Positions 10,312 through 44,711 are shown, counted from the stretch's first letter. The stretch: 64,000 nucleotides of DNA from Pirellulales bacterium (GCA_963716135.1 OY970289.1:1783462-1847461); one strand, 5' to 3'. Numbers and translations: made by a program. The notes: a model not told the origin generated them from the sequence alone.

Positions 10312-10486
10312 TGGAAGCGGAGCTCAACTTGCTGCAAACTCGAAAGGCATGATGCGACACTCGCTGTCCGGTAAACGTAGCCCAATATATCGCCCGGCAT
10401 CGCGCCGGAGAAGTCGACGGACGTCGCGCTGGGAAGGGGCGTCGAACTTGACTTTTGGCCCACCATCAACCACCATGGAGCCGTCG

Positions 10487-10540
10487 TGGGGATGGGGTCC
10501 CCCGAAACCGCCCGCCTGGGCTGATGACTCCTACCGACGC
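10487..10540 (+). promoter_or_regulatory. Fluoride riboswitch (crcB RNA motif)
   Basis: 'GGGGAUGGGGUCCCCCGAAACCGCCCGCCUGGGCUGAUGACUCCUACCG' carries the conserved blocks of the crcB motif (GGnGAUGG..., AAACCGCC, GCUGAUGAnnCCUAC) in the right order and spacing. A terminator and crcB follow. Confidence 0.85.
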
Positions 10541-14039: not shown

Positions 14040-15252
14040 ATGGAAGAGCAAGTTTCTCAAACCGCCGACGAAGAGCAGTTTGAACTCCGCATTGCCAAGC
14101 TCGAGGAGCTGTCCGCTGAACTGAAGCAGCTCGAGCAGTCGCTCGGCTCTGGCCAGGAAGGCCATCAGTCCGACACTCCGCCATTGGCCCGCCGCCGGGC
14201 GCAACTGGTGGCCAAGGAAGCACGGCTGGAAGAGGAGATGGAACGCTTGGAAGCGCGCCGCCAGCTCAGCCGCATCCAGCGCCGCCGCATCGCCGGATGG
14301 CTGAAAACCCAACGCAACGAGTTGATCCAAGAAGCGCGAAACCTTCCAGCGAGAATCGAAGCATGTCCAGCAGCAATTGCGCCGCGAACGAGCCCGTTGG
14401 GATAAAGATCGCGAAGAATTTGAGGAGCTCCGTCGGACCTTAGAAGCCAACTCCGAAAACGGCTCCACCGTCAACATTGAAGAGCTAAGCCAGTTGCAAT
14501 CCGACCGATCGGCCCTCAACATGCGGGTGCAGCAATTGGAGCACCAGTTGGCCGAGGCAGAGCATCGGCTGGCTGCTCAGTCTGAGGGGCAAAATACGAC
14601 TGAAATCGACGACCTGCAGCGCCGCTTTGAACTGGCCATCGACGACGTTCGCGAACTCAAACACCGCAACGCCGAACTCGAAGAGGCGCTGGCTGAAATT
14701 CAATCGCTCGGCGGCGACGCGGGTTCCGCCGTCAACGGCCGCGATTGGAACGCCACGAAATCCAGATTGACCGCGCTGTTGAATCAGGGTGAACAGGACG
14801 AATCCATCGACGCCAACGATCGGCTGACGGTCGAAGGCGCCATCCGCATCACTGATGACATCGTCGCCCAACGAGACGAAGAAATTGTCGCCCTCAAGGA
14901 ACAACTGGCGCAGCAATCCGGCGAACCCGCCGAACCGGGCGCCGCCGCAGCGTCCAACGATCAACTCTTCAATCAAGATGACATCATTCGCCAAGAGCGC
15001 GAACGACTGGCCGCGCTGAATCAAGAACTCCGCGAAAAGCTCCGACAAGCTGAAGTCGATCTGTCCGTTCAACGAGCCGGCCTTGCCCGCGAACGTGCAC
15101 AATTGCAGGAAAAGCTGCGAATCGTCGAAACCGAACGGGAAGAATTGGCGGCGCAGCAGCCGGTCAATCCGGCCGCCGCTGGGGGCAAGCCAAAAAAACC
15201 TGCCCGCCGTTGGATGGAACGGATGGGCTTGAAAGAGCAGGACCAGGAATAG
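14040..15252 (+). pseudogene. Long coiled-coil protein, reading frame broken once (~14335-14340)
   Basis: The first part, from ATG 14040, reads '[33 protein letters not shown]...NELIQEAR'. The heptad-rich sequence continues in the +1 frame as 'ETFQRESKHVQQQLRRERARWDKDREEFEELRR...' (track ORF 14377..15252, open from 14326). The function is unknown. Confidence 0.6.
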
Positions 15253-15835
15253 CAGTTCCAAGCTGCCGGCCAACTGCTAATCGCTCTCGCGCGTCGCGCA
15301 CTTTGTCCGCTTCCAGATGGTACACCGCCATGCAGCGGTCTTCAGGGCTTCGCAGCTCGTGAATCGTAAAGACCCCCTCCACCGCCACGGGATGCGTGGT
15401 GAAGTCGGTTGATTTGCCCGGCGCCATCTCTACGACGATGCAGTCGTACAGCGCCGCTCCGGGGCCGAAGCAGCACTCCATGTTGTCGCGCACCAAAACA
15501 AACTGCGTCAGCCCGCTTTGCTGAAAGCTGGGCAGAATATAGCCCCGAATCCGAATCGGCATGTCGTGCAGCTTTTCGATCGCCGGTGTGAGCATCGAGC
15601 GCACAAACGGCTGGTCCTTCTTGATGTCGAACTTCACCGTATCGAAGGTGATGTCGCGCACTGCTTGCGGTTGCGCATCGTGCGGCGGATCGGCAACACT
15701 TCCCGAAACCGGCGGAAGATTGCTTCCTGCCGCCGCCGGCGCAGATCGATCCGAACACCCCGCGCATTGAAATGCAGCAGCCACGACCACCATGGCGCCA
15801 ATCGCAAACCACAGTTTCGCTTCTGCGTTCTGCAT
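15164..15835 (-). CDS. DUF3299-like lipoprotein (paralog B)
   Basis: The track ORF is trimmed to ATG comp. 15833-15835: 'MQNAEAKLWFAIGAMVVVAAAFQCAGCS...IRIRGYILPSFQQSGLTQFVLVRDNMECCFGPGAALYDCIVVEM...'. It shares the G-Y-x-x-P...F(V/L)LVRD...CCFG core with the upstream paralog. It carries a 44-aa tail past the point where the paralog stops ('..QVR*') and overlaps the convergent coiled-coil gene by 89 nt. Confidence 0.72.
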   Translation of the reverse strand: MQNAEAKLWFAIGAMVVVAAAFQCAGCSDRSAPAAAGSNLPPVSGSVADPPHDAQPQAVRDITFDTVKFDIKKDQPFVRSMLTPAIEKLHDMPIRIRGYILPSFQQSGLTQFVLVRDNMECCFGPGAALYDCIVVEMAPGKSTDFTTHPVAVEGVFTIHELRSPEDRCMAVYHLEADKVRDARERLAVGRQLGTAIPGPALSSPSVPSNGGQVFLACPQRRPD

Positions 15836-15856
15836 TCTGCCTTCTGCTTTTCGCAG
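15818..15856. repeat. Purine-word array, family F (GCAGAAGGCAGAA on the coding/minus strand)
   Basis: + strand 'cgcttctgcgttctgcattctgccttctgcttttcgc' fills the 23-nt spacer and gene ends between the two DUF3299 genes. Related arrays lie at 17818-17850, 52372-52412 and 60880-60912. Confidence 0.55.
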
Positions 15857-15858
15857 CC

Positions 15859-16601
15859 TCACCGCACTTGAGCATCGTCCATGTGGTAAAACACGACCCC
15901 CTTCGCATCCGGCGCGTCGTAAGGATCGGTCACGTGAAACGTTCCGGCCAACTTGAACAGCTTGCTGGAAAACGCAACTCCCGCCGGATCCGCAAGCTGT
16001 ACCAAAATACGATCCGTCAATTTCGGATTGCCCCCGAAACAGCAACTGCCTTGATCGCGCACCAGCAGAAACTGCGTGATGCCATTTTGCCGCTGACCCG
16101 GGTAGACATATCCCTTGATGAACACCTTCTTGCCGTCCAGCGATTTCGCGTCGGGCGGAATTCTGTCAGGCGGTTCGTCGGGCAACGGCTGCAGAATCGA
16201 ATAATCAATCCGCTCGTAGCCTTCCGGCACCTCGGTGGCATAGATGTATCCCAGCCGCGCGAAGCCGCCGGCCCAAAACAAAACCGCCAGCACGGTTCCA
16301 GCAATCGCCAGTCCGGCGCCGGTGTACTCGCCACGATGCGTGCGAATGGTTCGCAAGGCCACGATGCCCAGAATCACGGCCGTCAGCGGAATCAGACCAA
16401 GCCACCAGTCGAACATCGCCAATGGCGACAAAATGCCCAGCGCCAGCGCCGCCACCGCCGATGACGATAGAGCGCGATATTCTTCGGCGGGATCGAAATC
16501 GTCATCCTGTTCGTTGCGCGCGAGAACAACGCAGTCCGCGACAACGTTTCATCGCGCGGAGGCTCGGCGGCTAGTTCGGCAGGTGTTTGTTCGATGCTCA
16601 T
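15859..16601 (-). pseudogene. Membrane-anchored DUF3299-like protein (paralog A), probable frame break near 16515-16545
   Basis: The body is track ORF 15859..16455: '...LGILSPLAMFDWWLGLIPLTAVILGIVAL...VFIKGYVYPGQRQNGITQFLLVRDQGSCCFGGNP...'. Its frame stays open upstream ('NEQDDDFDPAEEYRALSSSAV') but has no start codon. An ATG at comp. 16599-16601 ('MSIEQTPAELAAEPPRDETLS...') sits 6 nt after the upstream gene's stop in another frame. Confidence 0.65.
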
Positions 16602-16607
16602 CTAAGC

Positions 16608-17807
16608 TTAATTATTACTAGCCGGCGCCTTCTCGGCCGGAGCTTTCGCCCCCACTGCCCCTCCAAAAAGCGGAAACGCCGTGGCGCGCTTGGCGGCATC
16701 CGGATCAAGCTTTTCCAATTCCGCCAGTTTTTCTTTGGCTTCCGGCAATGGGCAAACCTGCAGATAACGCAGCACCGGCAGCCGCACGAAAGAGTCTTGA
16801 GGATCGGCCTGCTTGAACAGCTCCACGAGCCGATCCATCACCGACCAATCTTGCCAGCGGGCCAAATCGGGAATCACCAGGTCGGCCATTTTCGGGTTAT
16901 CCAAAACATGCCGCAGTGCTGCGGCCGCCTTTTCCTTCTTCACGATTCCCGCATCCTCGCTGATGCGCACCGCCCGGATCGCGGAATTCGTGTCCACAAA
17001 CTCCGCGTTTTTGTTCGTCAGGAACAAGTCTTCGATCGTCGCCATCCCTTCCGGTCCCTTGATCGCCAGATAGCTGCCGATCAGCACGTCCAATCCTTCG
17101 GCCAGCTTGCGATCCTTGGAATTCAACAGCGACTCCAGCATCGGCAAGTCTTTTTCCGTCCCGCAGACGCCCAGCATCGTGTAATACAGCCGCCGGTGGC
17201 TCGGCAAATTGTTCGGGTTCTTCAGCCATGCGATCAATTGATCGTGGTCCATCTTCGGCGCCAGCGCCTTCAAATCGGCGTAGGGCGCCAGCGCGAATTC
17301 ATCGTGCGCATCGCGGCACAGAACCTGGTCCTCGTCCTCCAAGTGCTTTTGGAAAAACACCAGGCGATCGGGCCCGGTGTCCGGCAGCTTCATGATGTCC
17401 AGGATGTACTGCCGGCCTTCGTTGGAAAGCGGAACCGGCGTCGACCAGGCGATCGACTTGGCGCCTGTGCCTGTGACGAGAAACTGCGCGCCGACGGTCG
17501 CATCGCCGAGGTAGTTCGCCTCGATCTGCTTGATATCTTTTACTAAGTCCGCCCCTTTAACCGACTCCAGAATTTTGAATTTGGATTTCGCCAGCGGCTC
17601 GCTGAGGCCGGGCGCAAAACCTCCGTCGCTGCCTGACTGACTTGGCGGAAGTTCCACTAGTTCGGCGATCACCGCCACGTCGGCCCCTTGAATCTCCTGC
17701 GAAAACGTGCGCGAAACGGCGCTGCAAAACGGACATGCCGATGCCACTCCTGCAGCCAACACAGCGAACAGCCCGAATATGCCCAGCGCGCTTCGACGAC
17801 GTGTCAT
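16608..17807 (-). CDS. Secreted protein with N-terminal CPFC motif and helical-repeat (HEAT-like) body, function unknown
   Basis: 399-aa ORF. The signal peptide 'MTRRRSALGIFGLFAVLAAGVASA' is followed immediately by 'CPFCSAV'. It is the third gene of the ABC operon. Confidence 0.8.
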   Translation of the reverse strand: MTRRRSALGIFGLFAVLAAGVASACPFCSAVSRTFSQEIQGADVAVIAELVELPPSQSGSDGGFAPGLSEPLAKSKFKILESVKGADLVKDIKQIEANYLGDATVGAQFLVTGTGAKSIAWSTPVPLSNEGRQYILDIMKLPDTGPDRLVFFQKHLEDEDQVLCRDAHDEFALAPYADLKALAPKMDHDQLIAWLKNPNNLPSHRRLYYTMLGVCGTEKDLPMLESLLNSKDRKLAEGLDVLIGSYLAIKGPEGMATIEDLFLTNKNAEFVDTNSAIRAVRISEDAGIVKKEKAAAALRHVLDNPKMADLVIPDLARWQDWSVMDRLVELFKQADPQDSFVRLPVLRYLQVCPLPEAKEKLAELEKLDPDAAKRATAFPLFGGAVGAKAPAEKAPASNN

Positions 17808-17817
17808 CTCATGCTCC

Positions 17818-17850
17818 TTTTTTGCCTTCTGCTTTCTGCCTTTTGCGTTC
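17818..17850. repeat. Purine-word array, family F, in the permease-CPFC gene spacer
   Basis: + strand is 'tttttgccttctgctttctgccttttgcgttcgc'. On the transcript this reads 'gcgaacgcaaaaggcagaaagcagaaggcaaaaaaggagcAUG', i.e. reiterated AAGG/GGAG-like words directly before the start codon. Confidence 0.55.
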
Positions 17851-17855
17851 GCCCG

Positions 17856-19232
17856 TCACGGTGTCGCCGTCAACGCCCGCGCCACGTCCGTGCGGTACGC
17901 CGACAGCGCCGGCAAAAATCCGACCAGCGACGCCAGCACAATCAATCCTGGTATCAAAATTAACTCATATTGCGGCGCAAACTGCAAGAAACCCACGCTG
18001 ACGCCGGTGGTGCCTTCAATCCAGGGACTCAGCGCCCCCAGCAAGCCATGGCCTAACAGCCAACCGCACAGCCCACCCGATAGCGCCAGCAAGATCGACT
18101 CCGCCAGCACGATGGCCATGATTTTGCCGCGATGCGCGCCCAGGGCCCGCATCACCGCAATTTCGTGCCGCCTTTCGGACATCGAATTATAGATGCTTAC
18201 CATGATGCCGATGCCTGAAACCACGACGATCAGCACGGCCAGGCCGAACAGCAAGTAGGTCAACGGCCCCACTAATGTGTCGAACAGCCGCGTGATTTCG
18301 CCGATCGGCGCCACGGCTTGAGCCACAAAATCCTTGTTGATGTCTTTGATCAGCCCCTGCACGAACAGCTCCCGCGGTGCGCCGGCGACGGGGCTTTTGG
18401 TGAGCACCAGCAGGGCGGTGACTTCGCGCATGTCTTCCGGCAGCGGCTTCAAACCGTGGGTGTGTTTGTCCACGTGCGGATCGTTCTCAATCGGCGCGGT
18501 CGTGGAGGCAGCGGTAGCGCCGGCGGCAGGCGCGGCGCCCGGCTCCGCCGCAACCTTGCGCGAATGCCCTCCCATCAAATAAAAGCCTTCCATGTTCACG
18601 TACACGGCCCGGTCGGCAGGCGTGCCGGTGCGCTTTAGAATGCCGACCACTTCGAACGGATCGTGCTTGTGTCCTTCCGGCGCGCCGTGCGACGGTTGAA
18701 TGTCGTCCCCCAGCTTGATGCCCATGTCGCGGGCCACTTGTGAACCGACGACCGCCGTAAAGTATTCATCTTGCTTGAAATTCCGCCCCTGAGCGAATTC
18801 ATATTTTTTGTCGGGCGCATACTCCATCTCGTCGAACATTTCGGTGTTGGTGGCCACCACGCGGAACTCGCCGAAGTAATCGCCCATCAGCACGGGAATC
18901 ACTTTGTCGGTTGCCGAAGCGAACTTGCCGTCCTTGCCGTCGTGCCGTTTCGCCGCCGGCAGAAATTCCTGGTAGTACCAATACGGAATGTTCTCCACCG
19001 GCTTGCTCAGGTGATACACCGTGTTGAGCACCAACTGCAGCGAGCCCCCTTTGGCCCCCACGATCATGTTGTAGCCTAGTCCGGCGCCGGAGCGGAACGA
19101 TGCGCCCACCACGCCGCTGGCCACCAGCACCGCCACCACCAGTGAAACGCCCAGCGCCATCGACAGGCCCGTGAGAAACGAGGCCAGTGACCGCTGCTGA
19201 ATGCTGCGCCAGGCTATTTTCCAAAGCGTCAT
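17856..19232 (-). CDS. ABC transporter permease, FtsX/MacB-type
   Basis: 458-aa ORF with N-terminal TM 'SFLTGLSMALGVSLVVAVLV', a large extracytoplasmic loop and a C-terminal FtsX bundle ('MRALGAHRGKIMAIVLAESILLALSGGLCGWLLGH'). The start overlaps the ATPase stop (ATGA). Confidence 0.9.
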   Translation of the reverse strand: MTLWKIAWRSIQQRSLASFLTGLSMALGVSLVVAVLVASGVVGASFRSGAGLGYNMIVGAKGGSLQLVLNTVYHLSKPVENIPYWYYQEFLPAAKRHDGKDGKFASATDKVIPVLMGDYFGEFRVVATNTEMFDEMEYAPDKKYEFAQGRNFKQDEYFTAVVGSQVARDMGIKLGDDIQPSHGAPEGHKHDPFEVVGILKRTGTPADRAVYVNMEGFYLMGGHSRKVAAEPGAAPAAGATAASTTAPIENDPHVDKHTHGLKPLPEDMREVTALLVLTKSPVAGAPRELFVQGLIKDINKDFVAQAVAPIGEITRLFDTLVGPLTYLLFGLAVLIVVVSGIGIMVSIYNSMSERRHEIAVMRALGAHRGKIMAIVLAESILLALSGGLCGWLLGHGLLGALSPWIEGTTGVSVGFLQFAPQYELILIPGLIVLASLVGFLPALSAYRTDVARALTATP

Positions 19233-19915
19233 TGGACCGTCGCGGCCGTGGCCGCCGTCACTTCGTTAATGTGTTCCAGATTTTCTACGCGCTGAAATTG
19301 CCCAGAGACTTCCGGCGTATGCGTTACAAGGACCAGTGCCACGTTTTCTTCGCGGCACGTTTCGCAAATCAGATCGACCACTTGCTGCTGATGCCGCGTG
19401 TCGATGTTCGCCGTGGGCTCGTCGGCCAACAGCAGCTTCGGCTTGTTCGCCAGCGCCCGCGCCACCGCCACGCGCTGCTGTTCGCCGACGGATAGCTGCG
19501 TGGGCTTATGATGGAATCGATGCCCCAATCCCACGCGCTCCAACAGGTGTTTCGCTCGATCGGGCCTCACCCGCCCCGTGGCGAACGACATTCCCAGCAG
19601 TACATTTTCCAACGCCGAAAACGCCGGCAGTAGATTGAATGTCTGAAATATGTAGCCGATCTTGTCGGCCCGAAACCGGTCGCGCCCCGCCTCGGGCAAG
19701 CGCGTAATTTCCACGCCGTCGATGCGAATCGAGCCTTCATCAGGCCGGCTAATGCCGGCGATCAAATGCAGTAATGTTGTCTTGCCCGATCCGCTGCGGC
19801 CGATCAGCACCATTTGCTCGCCGGCGGCGACGTAAAACTTTCGCACGTTGAGAATCGGCAGCCGCGAACCCCCCGGCTCGATGAACGACTTTTTAACGTT
19901 TTCCAGCGTAAGCAT
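19229..19915 (-). CDS. ABC transporter ATP-binding protein (LolD/MacB-like)
   Basis: The track ORF is trimmed to ATG comp. 19913-19915. It has Walker A 'GRSGSGKTT', signature 'LSVGEQQR' and Walker B 'LLLADEPT'. Confidence 0.92.
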   Translation of the reverse strand: MLTLENVKKSFIEPGGSRLPILNVRKFYVAAGEQMVLIGRSGSGKTTLLHLIAGISRPDEGSIRIDGVEITRLPEAGRDRFRADKIGYIFQTFNLLPAFSALENVLLGMSFATGRVRPDRAKHLLERVGLGHRFHHKPTQLSVGEQQRVAVARALANKPKLLLADEPTANIDTRHQQQVVDLICETCREENVALVLVTHTPEVSGQFQRVENLEHINEVTAATAATVQ

Positions 19916-20320
19916 CGAGAGGCCAGAGTGGATCGAAGGTGGGATCGGCGGGCGAGAACCAACGGCAAGCCGCATCGGGTGCGACAGGCAAGATCGCTTA
20001 CTGATGGTATATCCGGCGGCGGTTCTTCATGCAATCCAATTGCATGACGGGCCCGGTCCCCGCGCTGCCTCCTTGTCGCTTAACAAGTCGCCCGATCCGC
20101 CTCAAGTCTTGCGATGATAACTTGTTACAATACCAAGACAAAGATCAACCTGGCGTGCAGCTCCTTCCCCTAAAATACGCGGCCGGCGCCGTCGTGGTTC
20201 AACTTACGCCGCCAACTCAAATTCCAGACGGATGGCCACTGACGGATTTCAAAACCCACCGTACAATGCGACACCTTAAACGCTGACCAATCGGCGCCGG
20301 CTCGTTGCGGAGTTCTTAGC

Positions 20321-21902
20321 ATGGCCCAAATGCTCGATCTTTCCCGGCATGAAATCGACGCGGAGTTCGCCGTGCTCAATGCGCCCCCGGCGCCGCTCTA
20401 TGAAGACGCCGTCATTCTCGAGCACGCCGCCATCGCCGACAGCGGCGCGCTGATCATCCGCTCCGGCAAGAAAACCGGCCGCAGTCCGCTGGATAAACGC
20501 ATCGTCGATAATCCCGACAGCTCCGGCAGCGTGTGGTGGGGTCCGGTGAACATCAAGCTCGACGAGCACAGTCTTCGTCATCAATCGCCAACGCGCCATC
20601 GACTACCTGAACACCCGCGAACAACTTTACGTGGTCGATGGCTTCGCCGGCTGGGATCCTCAATACCGCATCAAGGTGCGAGTCATCTGCGCCCGGGCCT
20701 ACCACGCCCTGTTCATGCACAACATGCTCATTCGCCCTACGCCCGACGAGATGGCCACCTTCGGCGATCCCGATTACGTGATCTACAACGCCGGCCAGTT
20801 TCCCGCCAATCCGCACACGCAGCAGATGACCTCGCGCACCAGCATCGATATCAGCCTGGAACGCCGCGAGATGGTCATCCTGGGCACCGAATACGCCGGC
20901 GAAATGAAAAAGGGCGTGTTCACGCTGATGCACTACGTGATGCCCGGCCGCGGCGTGCTCTCCATGCATTGCAGCGCGAACGAAGGAGATGCCGGCGACG
21001 TGTCGCTGTTCTTCGGCCTATCGGGTACCGGCAAAACCACGCTCTCCGCCGACCCGCGGCGGCGGCTGATCGGCGACGACGAACATTGCTGGAGCGACGA
21101 AGGCATTTTCAACATCGAAGGCGGCTGCTACGCCAAGTGCATCAATCTCACGCGCAATAGCGAACCCGAAATCTACGACGCCATCCGCTTCGGCACCGTG
21201 CTGGAAAACGTCGTCTACGACGAGGAATCGCGCGCCGTCGATTTCGACGAGCGCCGCCATCACCGAAAACACCCGCGCCGCCTATCCGATCGAATATATC
21301 GCCAACGCCAAGGTGCCGTGCGTCGGCGGCCATCCGCGCAACATTATTTTTCTCACTTGCGATGCCTTCGGCGTGATTCCGCCGGTCAGCCGACTGACCC
21401 CCGAGCAGGCGATGTATCACTTCCTCAGCGGCTACACAGCCCGTGTGGCGGGCACGGAAGAGGGCGTCAAGGAGCCGCAGGTGGCTTTTTCCGCCTGCTA
21501 TAGCGCCGCCTTCCTGGTGCGACATCCCACGGTCTATGCGCAACATGCTGGCCGATCGACTGCGGGTTCATCACGACGCAAGCCTGGCTGGTGAACACCG
21601 GTTGGTCCGGCGGCGCAGTCGGCGCCGGCTCGCGCATCAAGCTGGCCTACACCCGCGCGATCATCGATGCCATTCACAACGGCACGCTCGGCGATGCTCC
21701 CACCCAGCGCGATGCCTATTTCAAGCTCGATTACTGCACCCGTTGCCCGAGCGTGCCCGATTCCATTTTGCAGCCGGCCGGCACATGGAAAGATCGGGCG
21801 GCCTACGAAGCCACGGCGAAAAAACTCGCCGGGTTGTTCCGCGAAAACTTCGCCAAGTATGCCGCCGACGCCGGCAAGGAAACTCAGTCCGCCGGCCCTT
21901 AG
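20321..21902 (+). pseudogene. pckA: Phosphoenolpyruvate carboxykinase (ATP), reading frame broken four times
   Basis: Conserved PckA sequence is spread over frames 2>0>1>2>0. The pieces are: 'MAQMLDLS...[16 protein letters not shown]' | '[37 protein letters not shown]...[42 protein letters not shown]...VDFDE' | '[48 protein letters not shown]...[10 protein letters not shown]' | '[12 protein letters not shown]' | '[31 protein letters not shown]...'. The breaks fall at ~20572, ~21250, ~21543 and ~21582. Confidence 0.9.
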
Positions 21903-36493: not shown

Positions 36494-37984
36494 ATGCCTT
36501 CTGCATCGTCAGGCTGTCGATTTTGCGTGCTCGCCTGCTTTCTGGCAGTGACAACCGTCTTTTTAGGTCGGGCTTCCGCAACTGAAACGATCACGAATTC
36601 TGAAGAGGCTCGCGAGCAACTTTACGCGGCTTATGCTAACCAGCTAAGCGAACTAGCCGCCGAATGTGATTCCAGCGGTCTGACGTCGCAAGCGCAGTTC
36701 ACGCGCAAGTGGCTGCCCAAGCGCGATCCGACGATGATCTATGTGTTTGCGCTGCCCGATTCATCCGCGCCGCCGGCGAAGCTCGTCGATTCGGAAGCGA
36801 GCCAGCAATGGTGGACGAAATTCACCGAGCTGCGACGCGGCCAGGCCGACAAGCTCTTCCAATTGGCCCAGTCGGCGGCCAAAGCCAAGCAACCCGCGCT
36901 GGCGTTTGAATTGGCGCGCGAAACGGTGCGTGAAAACCCCGACCACGCGCAGGGCCGAAAGATACTCGGCTTCGAAAAATATCAGGACTCTTGGAAAACC
37001 GCCGAAACGGTGCGCCGCCTAAAAGACGGGCAAGTCTGGAGCGATTCGTTCGGCTGGCTGCCCGCCGATCAATTGCCGCGCTACGAAAAAGGAATGCGCT
37101 ACTATCGCGGCAATTGGATCGACAAGGAGGAAGATGCCCGGCTGCACAGCAACATCAAGAACGGCTGGCATGTAGAGACCGATCATTACGCGGTCACGAC
37201 TAATCACAGCCTGGAAGAAGGAGCGCGGTTGGCCGGCCGGCTGGAAACGCTGTACGACGTGTGGCGGCAAGTGTTTCTGCCCTACTACGCCGGCGTGTCG
37301 GACGTGGAGCGCTGGTTTGCCGACGCAGCCATCCCCGCCGCTCCCCACAAATTGCACCAGGTGGTGTATTTCCGCGACAAAGAGCAATACGTCGATGCCC
37401 TGAAGCAGGCGCATCCGCAAATCGCCATGTCGCTGGGCATTTATATCGACACCGCCAACACGGCGTACTTTTTTTATGATGCGGAGCGTCACGATTCGAC
37501 GCTGAACCACGAAGGCACGCATCAGTTGTTCCAGGAAGTGCGCCCCGGCACGATCAAAGCCGGGGTGAAGAACAACTTTTGGATCGTTGAAGCCGTGGCG
37601 TGCTACATGGAATCGCTCGCCGAGCATCGCCTGCTGCCCGATGATCTTTACGGCAGTTACATCACCGTCGGCGGCGAAAATGAAGGCCGCGCGCCTGCGG
37701 CACGCAAGCGACTGCTGGACGACAACTTCTACGTGCCGCTGCGAGAATTGACGGCCTTCGGCCGAGATTCAATGCAGCACGATCCACGCCTGCCGATGAT
37801 CTATAGCGAAAGCTCGGGACTGGCGCTGTTCTTGATGGCTGCCGACGGTGGCCGCTACCGCGGGGCGCTGATGGATTATCTAATCGCCGTGTACACCGGA
37901 CACGCCGCGCCGGATGCGCTGGAAAAGCTTACCGGGCAGCGGTTCGAAGAACTCGATCGGCAGTACCGCGAGTTCATGAAGTAA
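36494..37984 (+). CDS. DUF1570-like putative zinc metallopeptidase (HExxH), secreted
   Basis: ATG 36494 gives 'MPSASSGCRFCVLACFLAVTTVFLGRASA'. 'HYAVTTNHSLEEGARLAGRLETLY...STLNHEGTHQLFQE' has an HExxH motif in the context typical of the DUF1570/peptidase-MA-like family. Confidence 0.72.
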   Translation: MPSASSGCRFCVLACFLAVTTVFLGRASATETITNSEEAREQLYAAYANQLSELAAECDSSGLTSQAQFTRKWLPKRDPTMIYVFALPDSSAPPAKLVDSEASQQWWTKFTELRRGQADKLFQLAQSAAKAKQPALAFELARETVRENPDHAQGRKILGFEKYQDSWKTAETVRRLKDGQVWSDSFGWLPADQLPRYEKGMRYYRGNWIDKEEDARLHSNIKNGWHVETDHYAVTTNHSLEEGARLAGRLETLYDVWRQVFLPYYAGVSDVERWFADAAIPAAPHKLHQVVYFRDKEQYVDALKQAHPQIAMSLGIYIDTANTAYFFYDAERHDSTLNHEGTHQLFQEVRPGTIKAGVKNNFWIVEAVACYMESLAEHRLLPDDLYGSYITVGGENEGRAPAARKRLLDDNFYVPLRELTAFGRDSMQHDPRLPMIYSESSGLALFLMAADGGRYRGALMDYLIAVYTGHAAPDALEKLTGQRFEELDRQYREFMK

Positions 37985-39277
37985 GCGACGGCTGTTCGTC
38001 TGCTTGCGGTTTGCCGCTGGCCGCCTGCCACGCGTCTTTACCGCAGGCGAATGCGTTGGGAGTGTGCACGTGCTCCGGCGCGCGCCCATGCCGACCATGC
38101 GCGCTGGAATGCGCCGTAATCGCGGCCAACGGTGCAGCCAACGTACGATTCGCGGAGGCTTGATTTGCTGCGTCGCCGTGATGGCCCGATTGATCACTCG
38201 ATTTTGAATGAACACTTGCACGCGCTGCGTCACTCGTGTGGGAAACTCGCGGCGGCGCTGCACGCGGTGTAAATCGGTCAGCGTGAGCGATTTGTCTTTT
38301 AGCGGCGCGGCCAGCAAGTTTGCGGTAGCGACCGCATCTTGAATTGCCAGGTTGATGCCCACGCCGCCCACCGGCGACATCGCGTGCGCCGCATCGCCGA
38401 TGCACAATAGCCCCGGCTTGTACCAACGCTCCAGGCGATCGATTTTCACGGTCAGCAGGCGGATGTCGTCCCAGGTGCGCAGCTCGTTCACGCGGTCGCC
38501 CAAAAATGGCGAGATTTCCAAAATCCGCGCCCGGAATGCTTCCAACCCGCGGGCCCGCACTTCATCGTAGCCTCCTTTGGGAATCACGTACGCACATTGC
38601 CAGTACTGGCCGCGGTAGATCATCACCAAAATGCTGCCGGCCGACACCTGGCCCAGCGGAATCAACGGGTCGCTCTCTTTGCGGGAAATCCGCATCCATA
38701 GCACGTCGATCGGCGAGCCGAAATCGCGCACCTTAAAGCCGGCGCGGTCGCGGAGCGTTGAGTGGCGCCCATCGCTGGCGACGGTCAATTCGGCCCGCAC
38801 TTCCAACGGTCCCTCCGGCGTTTCGGCATGCACGCCGACGACGCGGTCATCCTCTTCGATTAAATTGGTCACATTCGCCTGCATCCGCAGATGGAACGTC
38901 GGATATTTTTTCGCCTGCTCGGCCAAGAAATTCAGGAAATCCCATTGCGGCATCAGGGCGATGAACTTGCAGTGCGTCGGCAGGTAGCGGAAATCGGCGA
39001 TCATGGTTTCGAAATCGCCGATCTTGCCGGCCAGTTGCTGCACCTCCTGATGCTCGCGCTTCAGGAATTGTTCCAACAGGCCCAGTTCGTACATCACTTC
39101 CAGCGTGGAAGGATGGACCGTGTCGCCGCGAAAATCGCGCAAGAAATCGCCGTGCTTCTCCAGCACGGTCACGTCGACGCCGGCGCGGGCCAGCAGATAG
39201 CCGAGCATCATCCCGGCCGGTCCGCCGCCAGTGATGCAGCAGGTAGTTTGAACGGTTTTTGGTGTTTGGTTGCTCAT
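37974..39277 (-). pseudogene. FAD-dependent monooxygenase (UbiH/PheA-type fold), one frame break near the 3' end (~38080-38092)
   Basis: 'CCITGGGPAGMMLGYLLARAGVDVTVLEK' is the GxGxxG motif, with 'ASDGRHSTLR' and 'LLCIGDAAHAMSPVGGVGINLAIQDA'. After 'RIPARMVGMGAR' the family-typical 'PEHVHTPNAF' continues in another frame (track ORF 37974..38426). Uncorrected, the ORF runs 105 nt into the convergent gene. Confidence 0.85.
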
Positions 39278-39281
39278 GCGT

Positions 39282-39374
39282 GAAGTCTAGGTCGAAAAGT
39301 CCAAAAGTCTAAAAGTCGAAAAGTGCCGACCTGTTCTCTCTTTGACTCGTAGGCTTTTCGACTCTTCGACTTTT
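39282..39374. repeat. Word-built hairpin (words AAAAGTCGAAAAG)
   Basis: Left arm is 'gaagtctaggtcgaaaagtccaaaagtctaaaagtcgaaaagtg' and right arm is 'ctttgactcgtaggcttttcgactcttcgactttt'. It lies between yjbQ (stop 39380) and the monooxygenase start (39277). Confidence 0.55.
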
Positions 39375-39379
39375 AAACC

Positions 39380-39801
39380 TCACTCGCCAATGATTTTCAC
39401 CAGCACTCGCTTCCGCCGCCGGCCGTCGAATTCGTAGTAGAAAATATGCTCCCACGGGCCAAGATGCAGTTGGCCCTTGGTAATGGCCACGACCACTTCG
39501 CGCCCATCACCTGGCGCTTCAAGTGCGCATCGGCGTTATCTTCGCCGGTGCGGTTGTGGTGGTACGTCTTCGACGAAGCGTCGAACGGCGCCAGCTTTTC
39601 CAGCCACAGTTCGTAATCGTGGTGCAGGCCCGATTCGTTGTCGTTGATGAAGACCGACGCGGTGATGTGCATGGCGTTCACCAGCGCCAGGCCCTCCTTC
39701 ACGCCGCTGTCGCCGACGGCCTTTTCCACTTCGCGGTGAATCGAAACAATCGCCCGGCGCTGGGGCACTTCCATCCACAGTTCTTTGGTGAAGGTTTTCA
39801 T
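39380..39801 (-). pseudogene. yjbQ: YjbQ/UPF0047 family protein (secondary thiamine-phosphate synthase-like), one frame break (~39497-39506)
   Basis: The pieces are: '[29 protein letters not shown]...[34 protein letters not shown]...[20 protein letters not shown]' | '[40 protein letters not shown]'. The second part is in the adjacent frame, with its stop at comp. 39380-39382. Confidence 0.85.
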
Positions 39802-39917
39802 TGGGCTGCCACAAAATCCCGCTTGATTTGACGGCATTATAGCAGCAGACGGCTCAGATTGGCCCGGAAGTTGCATCATCTTTACCCGCACCGTAGGGAC
39901 TGCCAGAGGAGGCAAAT

Positions 39918-40487
39918 ATGCATTCGGCATTGATCGACACCAGATCGCGCACCAGAACGCACCGACAGGCTTGGGCAAACGAGACCAGCGAAGAGCGCGA
40001 AGTCGATCGACTGGAGCAGATTGCGTATTGGCTGGATAGCGCGTTCCGCGTGCCCGGCATCGGCTTGCGGTTCGGTTTCGACGCCATCCTGGACTTACTC
40101 CCGGGCGTTGGCGACGCGCTGGGCGCGCTCTTGTCGATGTACATCTTCCAGGCCGCGCGGCGGTTTGGCGTGCCCCGCGTCACGCTGGCGCGCATGGCGA
40201 TGAATATCGGCATCGACTACATCGGCGGTTTGGTGCCGTTCTTCGGCGCGATCTTCGACGCCTATTGGAAAGCGAACATTTGGAACGTCGGTCTATTGAA
40301 GCGGCATATCAAGGCAACGCCGCAAGAAGCCCGGCGAGCCCGTCGCGGCGACGGCGTGTTTGTGGCGCTGTGCATTGTCGGGCTGGTGCTGTTTATGGTC
40401 GCCACCTTTGCTCTGTTTGCGCTGGCGATCGCCTTGGTTGCCCAATTCTTCGCCCACATCGGCGGCCCGCGCAATTCGATCATCTAA
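39918..40487 (+). CDS. DUF4112 membrane protein
   Basis: 189-aa ORF. '[79 protein letters not shown]' is the DUF4112 core. Confidence 0.8.
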
Positions 40488-40591
40488 TTTGCAGAGGGCA
40501 CTCGATGAATCGATTGCCATTCGATTGGCGGTGGACGATAATCTCGGGCGCTCTCCCTTCTCTCGTCATGCGCTCCAGATCGCGATGATCC

Positions 40592-40849
40592 ATGGCCGAT
40601 CGACTAGTCACCGTCGCCAGTTTCCTCGGTCTCATCGAGGCGCATTTGGCGAAGAATCAGTTCGCTGAATCAGGCATCGAATCATTCTTATCCGACGAGA
40701 CGACAGCATACATGGCCTGGCATCTGACCAACGCTATCCACGGGATCAAGTTGCAGGTTAAGGGCGAAGATGTTGACGCCGCGCGCGAACTTTTGGCTGC
40801 CGACAGCGGTGCGCCCCTACAGCCGCTGCGGAAGAATTGCAGTCAATGA
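40592..40849 (+). CDS. DUF2007-like small protein (putative signal-transducing fold)
   Basis: 85-aa ORF. 'LVTVASFLGLIEAHLAKNQFAESGIESFLSDE...IKLQVKGEDVDAARELL' is the DUF2007 pattern. Its stop overlaps the next ATG (ATGA). Confidence 0.65.
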   Translation: MADRLVTVASFLGLIEAHLAKNQFAESGIESFLSDETTAYMAWHLTNAIHGIKLQVKGEDVDAARELLAADSGAPLQPLRKNCSQ

Positions 40850-41106
40850 TGGCGGAAGAAATGCCGGCGGCGGACGCCGGATTCGATGCGCACTTGGATG
40901 AGCCGGATCCCCTGACGCGGCGGGAAGACATGGCGGAGCGTGCATTCCGAGGCGCGGTGATCGGAATTTTGTTCGTGCCTTGGCAGTTGTGCGTGGCGTG
41001 GTTGCTTTTGAAAATCTATTTTTCAGATGAGCGGCTGGAACCGAGCCATCGCCGGAAAGCGTTTGTCGCGGCGACGATCAATTTCCTGTACGTGCTGATG
41101 GTTTGA
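40846..41106 (+). CDS. Small two-TM membrane protein, translationally coupled to the DUF2007 gene
   Basis: ATG 40846 overlaps the upstream TGA. 'MMAEEMPAADAGFDAHLDEPD...AFRGAVIGILFVPWQLCVAWLLLKIYF...AFVAATINFLYVLMV'. Confidence 0.55.
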   Translation: MMAEEMPAADAGFDAHLDEPDPLTRREDMAERAFRGAVIGILFVPWQLCVAWLLLKIYFSDERLEPSHRRKAFVAATINFLYVLMV

Positions 41107-41255
41107 ATTTTCCTGAAGTGGAAGCTGGGCATGCTCGTCTTTGCGGCGTAGGCCGCATGCCCGTTTGGTAGGTGGCCGGATGCGGCGTCCACCGGTACGA
41201 TTCGTGTAGAGGGTTTGGTCTCGGCAAAGAGGCCTGCGACGAAAGGAGACGGATC

Positions 41256-41732
41256 ATGGAACCGCGAATCGATCTAAAGAAAGCGCCGCCTGAAGCGATG
41301 AAGGCGATGTACGGCCTGGAAAAATATCTGCGATCAAGCGGCTTGGAAGAATCGCTGCTGCACCTGGTCAAAATGCGCGCCTCACAGATCAACGGCTGCG
41401 GCTACTGTCTGGACATGCATTCGAAAGATGCCCGCGCGAACGGCGAAACCGAGCAGCGGCTGTACGTGCTGCCCGACTGGCGCAAAGCGCCGTTTTACAC
41501 CGACCGCGAACGCTCTGCGCTGGCCTGGACGGAAGCGCTGACGCAGATTGCCGAAACGCACGCCCCCGACGAAGTATTCGAGCAAGTGCGCGAGCAGTTC
41601 GATGAGAAGGAGATCGTGGATCTTACGCTGGCGATCACAACGATCAACGCCTGGAACCGCATCGCCATCGGCTTCCGCGCCCCGATCGGCCAATACCAGC
41701 CGCACGAGCATCACGCCGCCGCGGCTACGTAA
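41256..41732 (+). CDS. Carboxymuconolactone decarboxylase / AhpD-like family protein
   Basis: ATG 41256 has AAGGAG 8 nt upstream. 'LLHLVKMRASQINGCGYCLDMHSKDARANGETEQRLYVLPDWRKAPFYTDRERSALAWTEALT' contains the CxxC AhpD-like core. Confidence 0.85.
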   Translation: MEPRIDLKKAPPEAMKAMYGLEKYLRSSGLEESLLHLVKMRASQINGCGYCLDMHSKDARANGETEQRLYVLPDWRKAPFYTDRERSALAWTEALTQIAETHAPDEVFEQVREQFDEKEIVDLTLAITTINAWNRIAIGFRAPIGQYQPHEHHAAAAT

Positions 41733-41772
41733 CCGCGAAGACGCGAAGATCGCGAAGGAGGACGATCTGCGA

Positions 41773-43001
41773 TCAGGGCGGGCTGCGGCACGCGCTGCAC
41801 ACGGCGCGACGCCGGCGGCCGACATAGCCAGTGGCCACCAGCGCCATTGCCGCCAGCACGATGCCCGACGGTTCGGGCACCAGCGTGTAGCCGATCAGGT
41901 CCAACGCCAGAATGTCGAGCGGCGTTACGATGCCCAACTCGCCGTCGTCGATGTTCGGATCCATGATCCCAAACGGCGGGCCGGGAAATGTGTAGGTGCT
42001 GTCCTTCCAGTGTTGCGCCTGGTACCCGTCGCCGAAGTTGATGCCCGTGGAAAACAGTGCGGAGGACGTGACGCCGCCGTCGTAGGACAAATAGGGATTG
42101 TCGCCGGGCACGTCGCTTGTGCCGGCGGCCCAATCGAGCACGGCGCCGCTAAGGGGCTGATCCACCAACGACGTGCTGTCGGCGGAGTAGCGGAACAAAT
42201 CGAGCACGGTAAAGATCGTTTCCGTCGAGTAGTCGTGAGGGTAATCGGGTCCATCGTGACCGGCGCCGTCGGAACTGGCGTAGTCGATGTGGTCCACGCC
42301 GCTAATGAATCCCATGCCGTGCGCCAGCTCGTGCGTGAGGACGGCGGTAAAGTCGATCTTTCCGGCGTCGATTCCGTCGCTGGGATCGAAATCCATGATG
42401 GGGAAGTAGATCGAGTTCACGACGATCGTGCCGTCGGCACCAGGCCGCCGTCCGCGCCCGGCAGCAGGCCCAAGGCCTTCTGGTTGGCGCGCGTCAGCCG
42501 CAGCGTGGAGTTGTAGACCAACGGGGCGGTCACATGCATGCGCAGCGACGGGGCGCCGGCCGTGTCGTTGGTGATCATGCTCAGCGCCGGCCCGGGCTGC
42601 AGCGAACTGACGGCCGAGGCGTCGTGCGCGGAAGTGCTGTCCAGGGCCAGCGCCGCGGCCACCGAACTGTAAGCGAATGGGCTGGTCGTCGGATCGACAT
42701 CGAAATAGCCCAGCGGTCCGCCCGGGATCGACGCTTCCACTAATTTGAAGTGCAGCACGATCGGATCGGCAAACTCGCTTTCCCACGTGCCGGTGGCGAT
42801 GCTGACCGAGGTCGCCAGGCCGCTCATGACCGGTGGAGGAAGCGGTGAGCCGACGTAGGGTAGCTCGATCAGCATCGCCGCGGCCGGCGACGCCGCCCAG
42901 AGAACTACAGCGACCGACAATGCGAGCACGCAGGCGCAGCGCGCGGTCGGCGAAGCCTTGGCGCACCTGGGCGGATGCGGTCGGCCGATGAATGCCGCCA
43001 T
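41773..43001 (-). pseudogene. Secreted HExxH metalloprotease with PEP-CTERM sorting signal, one frame break (~42431-42437)
   Basis: The N-part (track 42417..43001) has a signal peptide and '...LGLLPGADGGLV'. The C-part (other frame) reads 'DGTIVVNSIYFPIMDFD...AVLTHELAHGMGFISG...WKDS...IMDPNIDDGE...' and ends in 'LVPEPSGIVLAAMALVATGYVGRRRR' (PEP-CTERM). Confidence 0.8.
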
Positions 43002-43510
43002 GAAGGGACTCTCCTGTGGGCGAGACTGGCAACGAGAAAAGCAGATAAGTCGATTTCGCCTCGCGCTGGCGGAAGGGTAACACGGGGCGAAATCCGCGGC
43101 CAGCGTTTGGCAAGTTAGTGGAGGAGTTTTGCACCACCTTAAGGGGATTCCCTACATCTGCAGAGGGGACAGGCGCATGGCGGAGGGAATTCTCACGCAA
43201 AGGCGCGGAGACGCTAAGAAGAGGAGAATAGGAGACAAGGAGACATGAGCGCGCAGGGATAAACAGTTCCGCGCGAGGCGGGTTTTGTGCGATCGGCCCC
43301 GAGGGGTCGTGCATCCTTCGACACTTTTCCGAACAAGTCGGGAAAGGCTCAGGACTATAGGTTTGGCGATCGATCGGTGGGCTGGAATGCCTTGGACCAG
43401 CCCATTGAAGCTTGGCTGCCGATCGACCTCACGACCCCGGCGCTGGCTCCTGCGGCGGACCCATGCATGGGGTGAACGCGGGAGGGGAGCGCTTGGTCGG
43501 GCCGGGTTGC

Positions 43511-43584
43511 AGCTGTTAGCTTTTGGCAATTAGCCTTTAGCCAGCAGAAGCCAGCTAATTGCTAACGACTAATCGCTAACTGCT
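43511..43584. repeat. Word-built hairpin (words TTAGC / GCTAA)
   Basis: Left arm is 'agctgttagcttttggcaattagcctttagc' and right arm is 'gctaattgctaacgactaatcgctaactgct'. It lies in the 680-bp non-coding stretch preceding the TA islet. Confidence 0.5.
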
Positions 43585-43819
43585 AGTGTGGACATACTTC
43601 GCTGGGCACCGGCGGCAAGGCGTCGCGACCTGTTTATGTCCGAATTCGGGCGCAACATTGGCTCGCCCTTGCGAGCGGGACCTTTCGTCATGAGCACTGG
43701 CTGAACTTCTAGAAAGCCAACCACGAGCTGTACCACAGACCGCGACCGACGGTTCGCGGCTTTATGGTTTGCCCGATGCTCATCTAGCGGGAAGGGGCGA
43801 AGCTGGCGTTGCCGTGTTT

Positions 43820-43945
43820 CACCGCGGAGACGCAGAGACGCGGAGAGGAAATTTCCAACTGCGAATCTCCCTCGCGCGGTGAAGCGTTCAACGACCACAC
43901 GCAACATACACGAAGTGGTGGCCCAATTTCAAGGATCGTTTTGGG
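43820..43945 (+). repeat. Direct repeat copy 1 (~125 bp, imperfect) upstream of the higBA-like module
   Basis: '..ccgcggagacgcagagacgcggagagg..gttcaacgaccacacgcaacatACACGAAGTGGTGGCccaatttcaaggatcg' aligns by eye with 44712-44838. The identical 15-mer is at 43908-43922 and 44806-44820. Confidence 0.6.
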
Positions 43946-43965
43946 CCACGGTTACGATATAGCGC

Positions 43966-43993
43966 TTGACACATATAGTCTATAAGCTATAAT
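43966..43993 (+). promoter_or_regulatory. Consensus sigma70-type promoter of the TA module with embedded palindrome
   Basis: TTGACA (43966-43971) - 16 nt - TATAAT (43988-43993). The spacer contains the palindrome TATAGtCTATA (43974-43984). The first ATG lies 2 nt and the second ATG 8 nt after the -10 box. Confidence 0.6.
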
Positions 43994-43995
43994 TC

Positions 43996-44358
43996 ATGGG
44001 CATGTGGGCAGTCGAATATACCGATGAGTTCGAGCAATGGTGGAATTCGTTGGATGCGTACGAGCAACGTTCGGTCGATGCGAGTGTGGAACTTTTGCGC
44101 GAAGCAGGGCCGCGGCTTGGTCGGCCGCATGCGGATACACTTCACGGTTCGAAACATTCCAACATGAAAGAGTTGCGAACGCAGCATGAAGGGCGTCCGC
44201 TGCGAACGCTATTTGCCTTCGATCCTCGTCGCAGCGCGATTTTGCTGATTGGTGGCGATAAGACCGGCGACGATCGATTTTACGAACGCATGATTCCATT
44301 GGCAGATCGTTTGTATGACGAACATTTGGAAACACTTAAGCGAGAAGGGCTAATCTAA
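43996..44358 (+). CDS. RelE/ParE-superfamily toxin, HigB/Gp49-like
   Basis: 120-aa ORF. 'WAVEYTDEFEQWW..L...RLGRPHADTLHGSKHSNMKELRTQHEGRPLRTLFAFDPRRSAILLIGGDKTGDDRFYERMIPLADRLYDEHL' fits the Gp49/HigB-type killer pattern. It is followed by an XRE antitoxin, in toxin-first order. The start may be the second ATG (44002) if the mRNA is leaderless. Confidence 0.8.
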   Translation: MGMWAVEYTDEFEQWWNSLDAYEQRSVDASVELLREAGPRLGRPHADTLHGSKHSNMKELRTQHEGRPLRTLFAFDPRRSAILLIGGDKTGDDRFYERMIPLADRLYDEHLETLKREGLI

Positions 44359-44669: not shown

Positions 44670-44674
44670 CCGCT

Positions 44675-44708
44675 CCCTCTCCCCATGTGGGAGAGGGCTG
44701 GGGTGAGG
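44675..44708. repeat. Family D palindrome acting as terminator-like hairpin after the antitoxin
   Basis: 9-bp stem CCCTCTCCC (44675-44683) / GGGAGAGGG (44689-44697), then 'ctggggtgagg'. It starts 6 nt after the stop. A sister copy lies at 6045-6078. Confidence 0.55.
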
Positions 44709-44711
44709 AGT

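Follow-up and report, generated by a model that had tools for sequence, protein, structure and literature searches.

Proteins of the DUF3299 family have been described from two bacterial operons that respond to metals. In Vibrio the family is represented by ZrgE, a product of zrgABCDE, which is induced 76- to 206-fold in zinc deficiency (PMC9817125 Table 1), and in Pseudomonas aeruginosa by PA4066 of the PA4063-PA4066 operon, for which a structure is available (4HSP; PMC8561739). In both cases the transporter is a split MacB-like pair (PMC9820375; PMC11481552), the system is regulated by zinc or Zur and influences how cells grow when zinc is limiting or under a cobalt load (PMC9817125 Table 1; PMC9820375; PMC11481552). 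These systems matter for zinc-starved pathogens, and the part that a MacB-type protein without an obvious membrane pore plays in metal homeostasis is unexplained. Here we describe a cluster of five genes on the minus strand of a 64,000-nt stretch of the genome of a Pirellulales bacterium (GCA_963716135.1 OY970289.1:1783462-1847461; hereafter the window), which encodes an ATP-binding cassette (ABC) ATPase, a permease, a secreted protein with a CPFC motif (the CPxC protein) and two DUF3299 proteins, the products of genes 4 and 5 (Table 1). The cluster is a planctomycete variant of the zinc-regulated Zrg/PA4063-66 MacB-type systems in which the usual zinc-binding partner is replaced by the CPxC protein. 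We lean, by a small measure, towards reading it as an ATP-driven periplasmic machine for a divalent transition metal, probably zinc.

The relationship was established by direct comparison with the P. aeruginosa locus (L083 in our set), which encodes ZrgA, an ABC ATPase, a MacB_PCD/FtsX permease and DUF3299. The ATPase and PA4064 have 39% identity (E 1e-51). The permease aligns with PA4065 along its full length, residues 1-455, at 31% identity (160 bits, E 6e-49). In addition, the periplasmic part of the permease carries three histidines, H182, H190 and H223, conserved in 100%, 98% and 100%, respectively, of 41 aligned permeases (the window protein and 40 orthologues) and shared with the DUF3299-linked permeases of Pseudomonas, Stutzerimonas, Phaeobacter and Ruegeria; as a Zrg-type feature, this His triad is defined in the present analysis from five lineages. 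The full-length homology to PA4065 and the shared triad identify DUF3299 together with FtsX as the core of the Zur-regulated ZrgABCDE/PA4063-66 systems, and the ATPase-permease-DUF3299 core of the cluster is homologous to that class. As in Vibrio, a split ATPase, a permease with four transmembrane segments and a large periplasmic domain, and a DUF3299 protein are encoded in one operon (PMC9817125 Table 1; PMC9820375); as in PA4063-PA4066, the ATPase gene precedes the permease gene, with DUF3299 downstream. The original prediction, made from the sequence alone, knew of no characterised system with this composition, a statement that no longer stands, as DUF3299 with an FtsX/MacB ABC pair is the core of both Vibrio ZrgABCDE and P. 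aeruginosa PA4063-PA4066 (PMC9817125, PMC9820375, PMC11481552). It had also allowed that operons of this kind might already have an assigned function: they are indeed zinc- or Zur-regulated and have been studied genetically, although the role of DUF3299 and the direction of transport have yet to be settled there.

What is new in the cluster is the lack of ZrgA, the CPxC family, the pair of Cys-Cys DUF3299 paralogs and the poly-His/Asp inserts of the permeases. Vibrio encodes both ZrgA, a His-rich zinc binder of the DUF2796 family, and ZrgD (DUF2607), whereas the cluster has neither and carries instead two DUF3299 genes, one of them for a membrane-anchored protein, and a CPxC protein made of TIMP-like and HEAT parts. 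PA4063 (ZrgA) likewise has no counterpart here: DUF2796 (PF10986) is found in none of the five proteins, and tblastn with Phaeobacter and Pseudomonas ZrgA drew a blank in 82 planctomycete loci and in the operon. PA4063-66 differs further in having been proposed to export a pyochelin-cobalt complex (PMC11481552). Two related loci lie on plasmids. The Phaeobacter copy stands beside a Fur-family regulator and DUF2796, and that of Ruegeria conchae (NZ_CP081104.1; L086) comprises a membrane-fusion-type 'biotin/lipoyl-binding protein', an ABC ATPase, a permease with the His triad and DUF3299; a porin and another DUF3299 come next, and ZrgA is missing. The planctomycete cluster can be viewed as a natural 'experiment' in which a His-rich ZrgA has been swapped for a TIMP-like protein with an N-terminal Cys, accompanied by Cys-Cys DUF3299 partners. 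Literature searches on MacB-type systems and zinc in Planctomycetes, and on ZrgE, found nothing relevant.

The five-gene cluster is real and conserved across the Pirellulales. We kept 80 loci, all from Planctomycetota and mainly from Pirellulales. The ABC pair lies directly upstream of the CPxC gene in 52 of 65 testable loci, the gene for a transmembrane DUF4190-DUF3299 protein directly downstream in 62 of 63, and the second DUF3299 gene next in 51 of 63; a sixth gene, for a CPxC paralogue 25-30% identical to the first, follows in 17 of 56. This arrangement is far beyond chance, and the order of the genes is conserved. The linkage in 62 of 63 loci makes the CPxC gene and that of the transmembrane-anchored DUF3299 the tightest pair, and a few loci have this pair only. 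Two of these (L013:5968-9702 and L047:5896-9539) have no ABC genes within 6 kb, and the pair is followed there by a gene for a polytopic membrane protein of 516-527 aa whose type is unknown. Since the neighbouring genes vary from locus to locus, the cluster behaves as a self-contained module.

At least 1,421 relatives of the CPxC protein exist, none of them named. An exhaustive profile search recovered 2,742 cluster representatives (clustering at 50% identity) with E<=1e-3, and 1,141 with 1e-30. Relatives occur in at least 570 species genomes (one genome scanned per species), and the comparison gives a likely role to this large family, which is annotated only as 'hypothetical'. At one locus (L053:900-10400), a single ABC pair lies amid five CPxC-family paralogues, two of which have 'ICC' and 'GCLC' in place of CPFC.

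From its sequence motifs, the ABC pair is assigned to the type VII (MacB-type) transporters. The ATPase has its Walker A motif at residue 39, the signature at 141 and Walker B at 161, and the permease matches FtsX at 64.8 bits (cutoff 25.5) and MacB_PCD at 44.1 bits (cutoff 27), with hydrophobic segments at 15-50, 316-352, 370-398 and 419-446 that hydropathy predicts to be four transmembrane segments. The pair nevertheless differs from MacB, LolCDE and FtsEX in lying beneath all curated family cutoffs and in having no MacA-type adaptor or LolA/B-type partner. Curated models for LolCE, MacB, FtsX and DevC match only the C-terminal transmembrane region of the permease (at most 55 bits), and the solved MacB, LolE and LolF structures align only with that same part (at most 44 bits), whereas the His triad sits outside it, in the periplasmic domain. 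The best curated match of the ATPase is the NCBIfam model of LolD, and gene 5 encodes a lipoprotein in the window lineage, which would suit a Lol-like system that extracts lipoproteins or lipids of the envelope. We rejected this explanation as extremely unlikely: the equivalog cutoffs of LolD (198.8 bits, cutoff 307.75) and LolCE (44.9 bits, cutoff 362.45, on the C-terminal region only) are not reached, the second DUF3299 protein is soluble and secreted in most orthologues, and the permease is a full-length homologue of PA4065.

The periplasmic stretch of the permease that follows H223 is variable, and in 14 of the 41 permeases it holds a poly-His/Asp/Glu insert with at least four His, such as 'HDHAHDHDHDHDHDHAHAHHH', with a maximum of 27 His in 96 residues. 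The median His fraction of the insert is 0.043, compared with 0.018 elsewhere in the permease. Loops of this kind are typical of proteins that bind Zn, Ni or Co. Extreme inserts occur in the permeases of loci L051, L071, L073, L062, L061 and L082.

Both DUF3299 assignments are above the gathering cutoff of the family (PF11736), which is 22 bits. The product of gene 4 scores 38.5 bits with DUF4190, also above cutoff, and 23.0 bits with DUF3299, and that of gene 5 scores 27.6 bits with DUF3299; they match 4HSP at E 7e-3 and 1.4e-4, respectively. More widely, 13 of 18 planctomycete DUF3299 domains match PF11736, and a profile built from such domains retrieved 4HSP (PA4066, which has an OB-like fold) as its sole match in the PDB, at E 1.9e-9. 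The gene 4 protein consists of a DUF4190 transmembrane hairpin, a third transmembrane segment and then a periplasmic OB domain, and its Cys-Cys pair occupies residues 138-139 (16039-16044). That of gene 5 lies at residues 121-122 (15470-15475), downstream of a CAGC lipobox (15755-15766); the second DUF3299 protein is a lipoprotein in the window lineage (CAGC/AGC lipobox) and a soluble secreted protein in most other orthologues. The blocks FLLVRDQGSCCFGG and FVLVRDNMECCFGP are both found in the DUF3299 proteins of the window, CCFGG is present in 74 of 76 orthologues of the transmembrane type, and ECCFGPGA is conserved in close orthologues of gene 5.

Alignment of four DUF3299 subtypes leaves one universal Cys. 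Around it, the planctomycete transmembrane type reads C-C-F-G-G, the second type (L-type, to which gene 5 belongs) C-C-F-G-P followed 10 residues later by another conserved Cys, a third planctomycete type C-K-F-G-P...A-D-H, and the Pseudomonas type, including PA4066, C-I-H-V-P-P-P-P. The proteobacterial block G-A-C-I-H-x-P-P-P-P is missing from the window proteins, which have S-C-C-F-G-G and E-C-C-F-G-P instead. As the Cys alone is shared with that block, the planctomycete DUF3299 proteins form a divergent subfamily. The comparison gives the permease subfamily a hallmark, the His triad, and DUF3299 a core, the universal Cys.

The N-terminal motif of the CPxC protein, CP[FYG]C, is found in 118 of the 118 full-length relatives listed, C25, P26 and C28 are invariant in the family alignment, and the motif is retained even in the paralogues of 25-30% identity. 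The conservation of the Cys motifs in orthologues, on which the original prediction had staked itself, therefore holds for this protein as it does for the CCFGG block. In the same 118 relatives, position -1 of the signal peptide is A, S or G in 114 and position -3 is always A, V, L, S, I, T or G (81 Ala, 17 Val). With this conserved signal-peptidase I site directly before CPxC, the mature protein is predicted by the -3/-1 rule to begin with Cys; the frequent R, K and Q at position -2 argue against a lipobox. Two further cysteines lie in the helical repeat domain, C352 (16752-16754), which is invariant, and C215 (17163-17165), which is nearly so. Many orthologues end in a low-complexity linker and a C-terminal transmembrane anchor, and the window protein is without an anchor.

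The full-length AlphaFold2 model of the CPxC protein (predicted local distance difference test, pLDDT, 85) consists of a beta domain (44-127) and a helical solenoid (129-377). When the N-terminal domain was modelled alone (residues 25-145, pLDDT 83.7), the top 14 Foldseek matches in the PDB were all TIMP-1, TIMP-3, agrin NtA or PCOLCE NTR, the first 13 with probability 1.00 and a TM score relative to the query (TMq) of 0.51-0.56, and TIMP-3 (3cki) with probability 0.92 and TMq 0.44; the best E value was 1.2e-3. This TIMP/NTR-like OB domain in the N-terminal third of the protein, like the frame break in gene 4 described below, is absent from the original prediction. In the model, as in animal TIMP and NTR proteins, an OB-fold domain stands at the N-terminus of a predicted mature chain that starts with Cys. 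The differences are that CxxC replaces CxC, that the domain is fused to HEAT repeats, that no protease partner is apparent and that the TIMP disulfide partners are absent, C25 and C28 being the only conserved Cys of the domain. We rejected membership of the TIMP/NTR family at the level of sequence, because a profile search of the PDB with the domain returned no TIMP and Pfam gave no TIMP/NTR match at E<=10; as far as the model goes, the likeness is one of fold and not of family. A cryptic DUF3299 domain in this position was likewise rejected (hhalign probability 0.3%). The helical part reaches 23.0-25.4 bits with HEAT_2 (PF13646), beneath the cutoff of 27.7, and Foldseek on the full model gave only generic HEAT/ARM repeat proteins (alphaRep, importin-alpha, deoxyhypusine hydroxylase; E ~2e-3), so that a specific function for it was not adopted.

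TIMPs begin with Cys after signal cleavage, and the amino and carbonyl groups of TIMP Cys1 chelate a zinc ion bound by three His. The likeness of the mature N-terminal Cys of the CPxC protein to TIMP Cys1 is suggestive by analogy. FtsEX-type members of the ABC superfamily regulate hydrolases, and the fold match could accordingly be taken to mean that the ABC pair controls a periplasmic zinc metalloprotease or cell-wall hydrolase in the manner of FtsEX, with the TIMP-like domain as a true protease inhibitor or regulator. There is a bacterial precedent in Listeria, where a secreted lipoprotein of TIMP-like structure is paired with a metzincin; that pair, however, is encoded beside the protease and has no ABC transporter, DUF3299 or CPxC protein (PMC8235301). 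Such control is very unlikely for the cluster, given that no protease or hydrolase gene lies in or beside it in the loci inspected, that the disulfide framework of TIMPs is absent and that its closest relatives are metal-regulated transport systems.

The CPxC motif is also the classical motif of dithiol oxidoreductases, and conserved Cys pairs occur in all three partners of the permease, which would be expected of a periplasmic thiol-disulfide system in which CPFC is a glutaredoxin/DsbA-type redox pair and the vicinal cysteines of the DUF3299 proteins serve as its partners or as redox sensors. The CPFC segment is not, however, part of a thioredoxin fold: it is a flexible segment before the TIMP-like OB domain, whereas a thioredoxin-type CxxC would head helix 1 of that fold. 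The thioredoxin-type reading was rejected on this ground, and neither Pfam nor Foldseek gave a Trx, Grx or Dsb match. The cluster provides no electron source (a DsbD-, CcdA- or DsbB-like gene), proteobacterial DUF3299 has Cys-x-His and no Cys pair, and the His triad and poly-His loops would be left unexplained. We consider a thiol-disulfide function distinctly unlikely.

How a machine for a divalent metal might work can be sketched from these parts. The ATPase/permease pair would convert ATP hydrolysis into movement of the large periplasmic domain that bears the three-His cluster, mechanotransmission being the way in which the MacB family works (as cited in PMC9820375, PMC11481552), and this movement would put a divalent metal on the His site or take it off. 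Three Cys-bearing partners would surround the permease, two of them tethered to a membrane in the window (the DUF4190-anchored DUF3299 protein and the lipoprotein). Acting as donor and acceptor, the N-terminal Cys pair of the CPxC protein and the Cys-Cys pairs of the DUF3299 proteins would pass metal to or from the His site, and the CPxC protein would fill the place that the His-rich ZrgA has in proteobacteria. Our best guess for the metal is zinc, in view of the Zur control of the homologous systems and because mixed His/Cys ligation suits it. The comparisons show the homology of the ABC pair and DUF3299 to the Zur-regulated systems, the conserved His and Cys motifs, the synteny and the folds; that a metal is bound, which metal it is, in what order the partners hand it over and which way it moves are what we infer. 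Co, Cd or Cu may take the place of zinc, and transport may run either way. In other systems, small periplasmic proteins such as the OB-fold CusF and the CxxC protein MerP hand a soft metal to a membrane machine, MerT receiving it on a vicinal Cys-Cys. The resemblance to CusF-CusCBA and MerP-MerT is a functional analogy only, as the families, the energy source and the membrane component are unrelated. Periplasmic metal chemistry had been put forward in the original prediction from the Cys motifs; it is a reasonable idea, now better grounded because it is supported independently by the His triad, by the poly-His inserts and by homology to a Zur-regulated system.

Several observations weigh against this proposal. 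The reference systems are themselves disputed, with zinc import argued from growth phenotypes in Vibrio and pyochelin-cobalt export proposed in Pseudomonas; 'no evident ability to bind Zn' was noted for crystals of PA4066 (PMC11481552), and knocking out zrgE singly gave no phenotype (PMC9820375). Within 6 kb, neither the 82 planctomycete loci nor the window has a gene for ZrgA, Fur/Zur or a membrane-fusion protein. No conserved operator was found upstream of the operon across 52 loci (planctomycete Zur boxes are not known), nor a riboswitch or regulatory RNA in or upstream of the operon (Rfam, E<=1). As for the proteins, confidence in the modelled CPFC segment is low (pLDDT below 50 with the full model, 61 with the domain alone), and the TIMP similarity, which lacks the disulfide partners, goes no further than the modelled fold (E ~1e-3, TM score ~0.55). 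The Cys pairs might, in an oxidising periplasm, form disulfides and not act as ligands. The insert of the window permease is modest, with 3 His only, and position 115 of this permease is Leu where 88% of orthologues have Cys.

A more specific version of metal transfer takes up the TIMP fold. The CPxC protein would act as a TIMP-fold 'wedge' whose free N-terminal Cys, with its alpha-amine and the two thiols, docks on the metal held by the His triad of the permease, while ATP-driven motion loads or strips the metal, which then goes to the Cys-Cys of the DUF3299 proteins. We rate this version as rather unlikely. Were it true, it would represent a new kind of ABC metal movement, by mechanotransmission between periplasmic sites and not through a membrane pore, as well as the first use of a TIMP fold in metal trafficking, and it would offer a mechanism for the whole Zrg/PA4063-66 class. 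The comparison now provides concrete residues to mutate and complexes to model.

Export offers another explanation of the same components. The pair could move a small molecule or metal chelate outward from the membrane or periplasm, as proposed for PA4064/PA4065, with the Cys proteins as adaptors or in substrate recognition. MacB family members are generally exporters or extractors, loss of PA4065 leads to intracellular accumulation of pyochelin and cobalt (PMC11481552), and the Ruegeria relative described above joins a His-triad permease and DUF3299 to a membrane-fusion-type protein and a porin. No planctomycete locus, however, has genes for a membrane-fusion protein, an outer-membrane channel or biosynthetic enzymes in or beside the cluster, and chelate export leaves the His triad, the poly-His loops and the three Cys partners unexplained unless the cargo is metal-bound, at which point it merges with the handling of a divalent metal that we prefer. 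As a separate explanation, it is unlikely.

Upstream of the operon, a perfect 9-3-9 palindrome, TCATGCAAT-cca-ATTGCATGA, lies between the ATPase gene and pckA. It is a possible operator, and a weak candidate as such. As a conserved operator it was rejected, since it recurs only in the 97%-identical locus L003 and is absent from 51 other upstream regions.

Table 1. Positions of the cluster and its features, counted from the first nucleotide of the window
Feature	Position	Strand	Remarks
Palindrome (9-3-9)	20027-20047		between pckA and ATPase gene, 112 nt upstream of ATPase start codon
ATPase gene	19229-19915	minus	228 aa; Pfam ABC_tran 124 bits; PA4064/ZrgC homologue
ATPase/permease junction	19229-19232	minus	ATGA overlap
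Permease gene	17856-19232	minus	458 aa; MacB-type (type VII ABC) by sequence; PA4065/ZrgB homologue
Permease periplasmic domain	18288-19082 (residues ~51-315)	minus	predicted from hydropathy
Periplasmic His triad, candidate metal site	18564-18689	minus	H182 18687-18689, H190 18663-18665, H223 18564-18566
Variable insert after H223	18450-18563 (residues 224-261)	minus	Ala/Pro-rich here, ends HVDKHTH
Permease-CPFC spacer	17808-17855	minus	48 nt, 81% purine; AAGCAGAAGGCA and AAGGAG Shine-Dalgarno-like site
CPFC (CPxC) protein gene	16608-17807	minus	399 aa, secreted
Signal peptide of CPxC protein	residues 1-24	minus	mature protein predicted from Cys25
CPFC motif	17724-17735 (residues 25-28)	minus	predicted mature N-terminus
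TIMP/NTR-like OB-fold domain	17418-17735 (residues 25-130)	minus	AlphaFold2 domain model and Foldseek
HEAT/ARM-like helical repeat domain	16677-17417 (residues 131-377)	minus	sub-cutoff HEAT_2 and Foldseek
Remnant 5' part of gene 4	16456-16601	minus	ATG 16599-16601 (MSIEQ...), out of frame with remainder
Gene 4, transmembrane-anchored DUF3299 open reading frame	15859-16455	minus	198 aa; DUF4190 and DUF3299
Gene 4-gene 5 spacer	15836-15858	minus	23 nt, 78% purine; also carries AAGCAGAAGGCA
Gene 5, second DUF3299	15164-15835	minus	223 aa; lipoprotein type here

The open reading frames (ORFs) bear out the five tightly packed minus-strand genes of the original prediction at their positions, with the ATGA overlap and the 48-nt and 23-nt spacers, and its account of the products also stands: an ATPase like LolD and an FtsX/MacB_PCD permease, a secreted CPFC protein with helical repeats, and a transmembrane-anchored and a lipoprotein-type DUF3299. 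Along the cluster, Pfam gives ABC_tran; FtsX and MacB_PCD; a sub-threshold HEAT_2; DUF4190 and DUF3299; and DUF3299. The ATPase ORF has an alternative upstream start at ATG 19975, and we placed the start codon at 19915 because the orthologues and PA4064 align from MLTLEN. No extra paralogues of the cluster genes were found elsewhere in the window.

The start of gene 4 is more complicated. The TAA stop codon of the CPFC gene is indeed followed after 6 nt by an ATG, as predicted; this ATG is out of frame with the DUF3299 ORF and its own frame reaches a stop after 69 codons, and in three-frame translation the DUF3299 frame opens mechanically at GTG 16455. Since orthologues of gene 4 begin with 'MSI(E/D)..YxxYRALS', the ATG is the ancestral start, and the frame is broken between about 16548 and 16516. 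The same frame structure is found in L003 (metagenome-assembled genome 'Pirellulales bacterium MFD04944.bin.2.46'), so that the break reflects either a lesion of this lineage or a systematic error of assembly. In gene 5, the DUF3299 domain extends to about residue 180 (15296), after which comes a lineage-specific tail of 43 aa (15164-15295) that has no counterpart in orthologues. The tail, which is common to L003, overlaps a convergent coiled-coil ORF (14377-15252) by 89 nt.

Beyond the cluster, the homologue of pckA (phosphoenolpyruvate carboxykinase) at 20321-21902 (+) runs through frames 2/3/1/3, that is with three frame changes, compared with an intact 525-aa orthologue in locus L002; in the near-identical L003 it has one break, in a different place. 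The split pckA points to indel errors in a long-read assembly.

The purine-word array noted earlier is present, with AAGCAGAAGGCA in both spacers, and is not specific to the operon, a reading that is ruled out by copies elsewhere in the window. The 12-mer has 5 matches in the window, where 0.33 are expected. One lies at 36495-36506 (-) and two stand in tandem, at 60881 and 60895, within 60878-60912 (+), a region that also holds a one-mismatch copy immediately upstream of an ORF start; from its occurrence at 36495 and 60881-60906 we take the word to be a short dispersed motif of the genome.

The sole Rfam match in the window is a fluoride riboswitch (RF01734) at 10479-10540 (+), with 55 bits against a gathering score of 34. 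Further along, in the region of about 39000-46000, the sign of the GC skew switches at about 39-41 kb, which is also where the minimum of the cumulative skew lies, and the 44-46 kb bin has a GC content of 0.514, compared with about 0.60 elsewhere; this region could be a replication landmark or foreign DNA.

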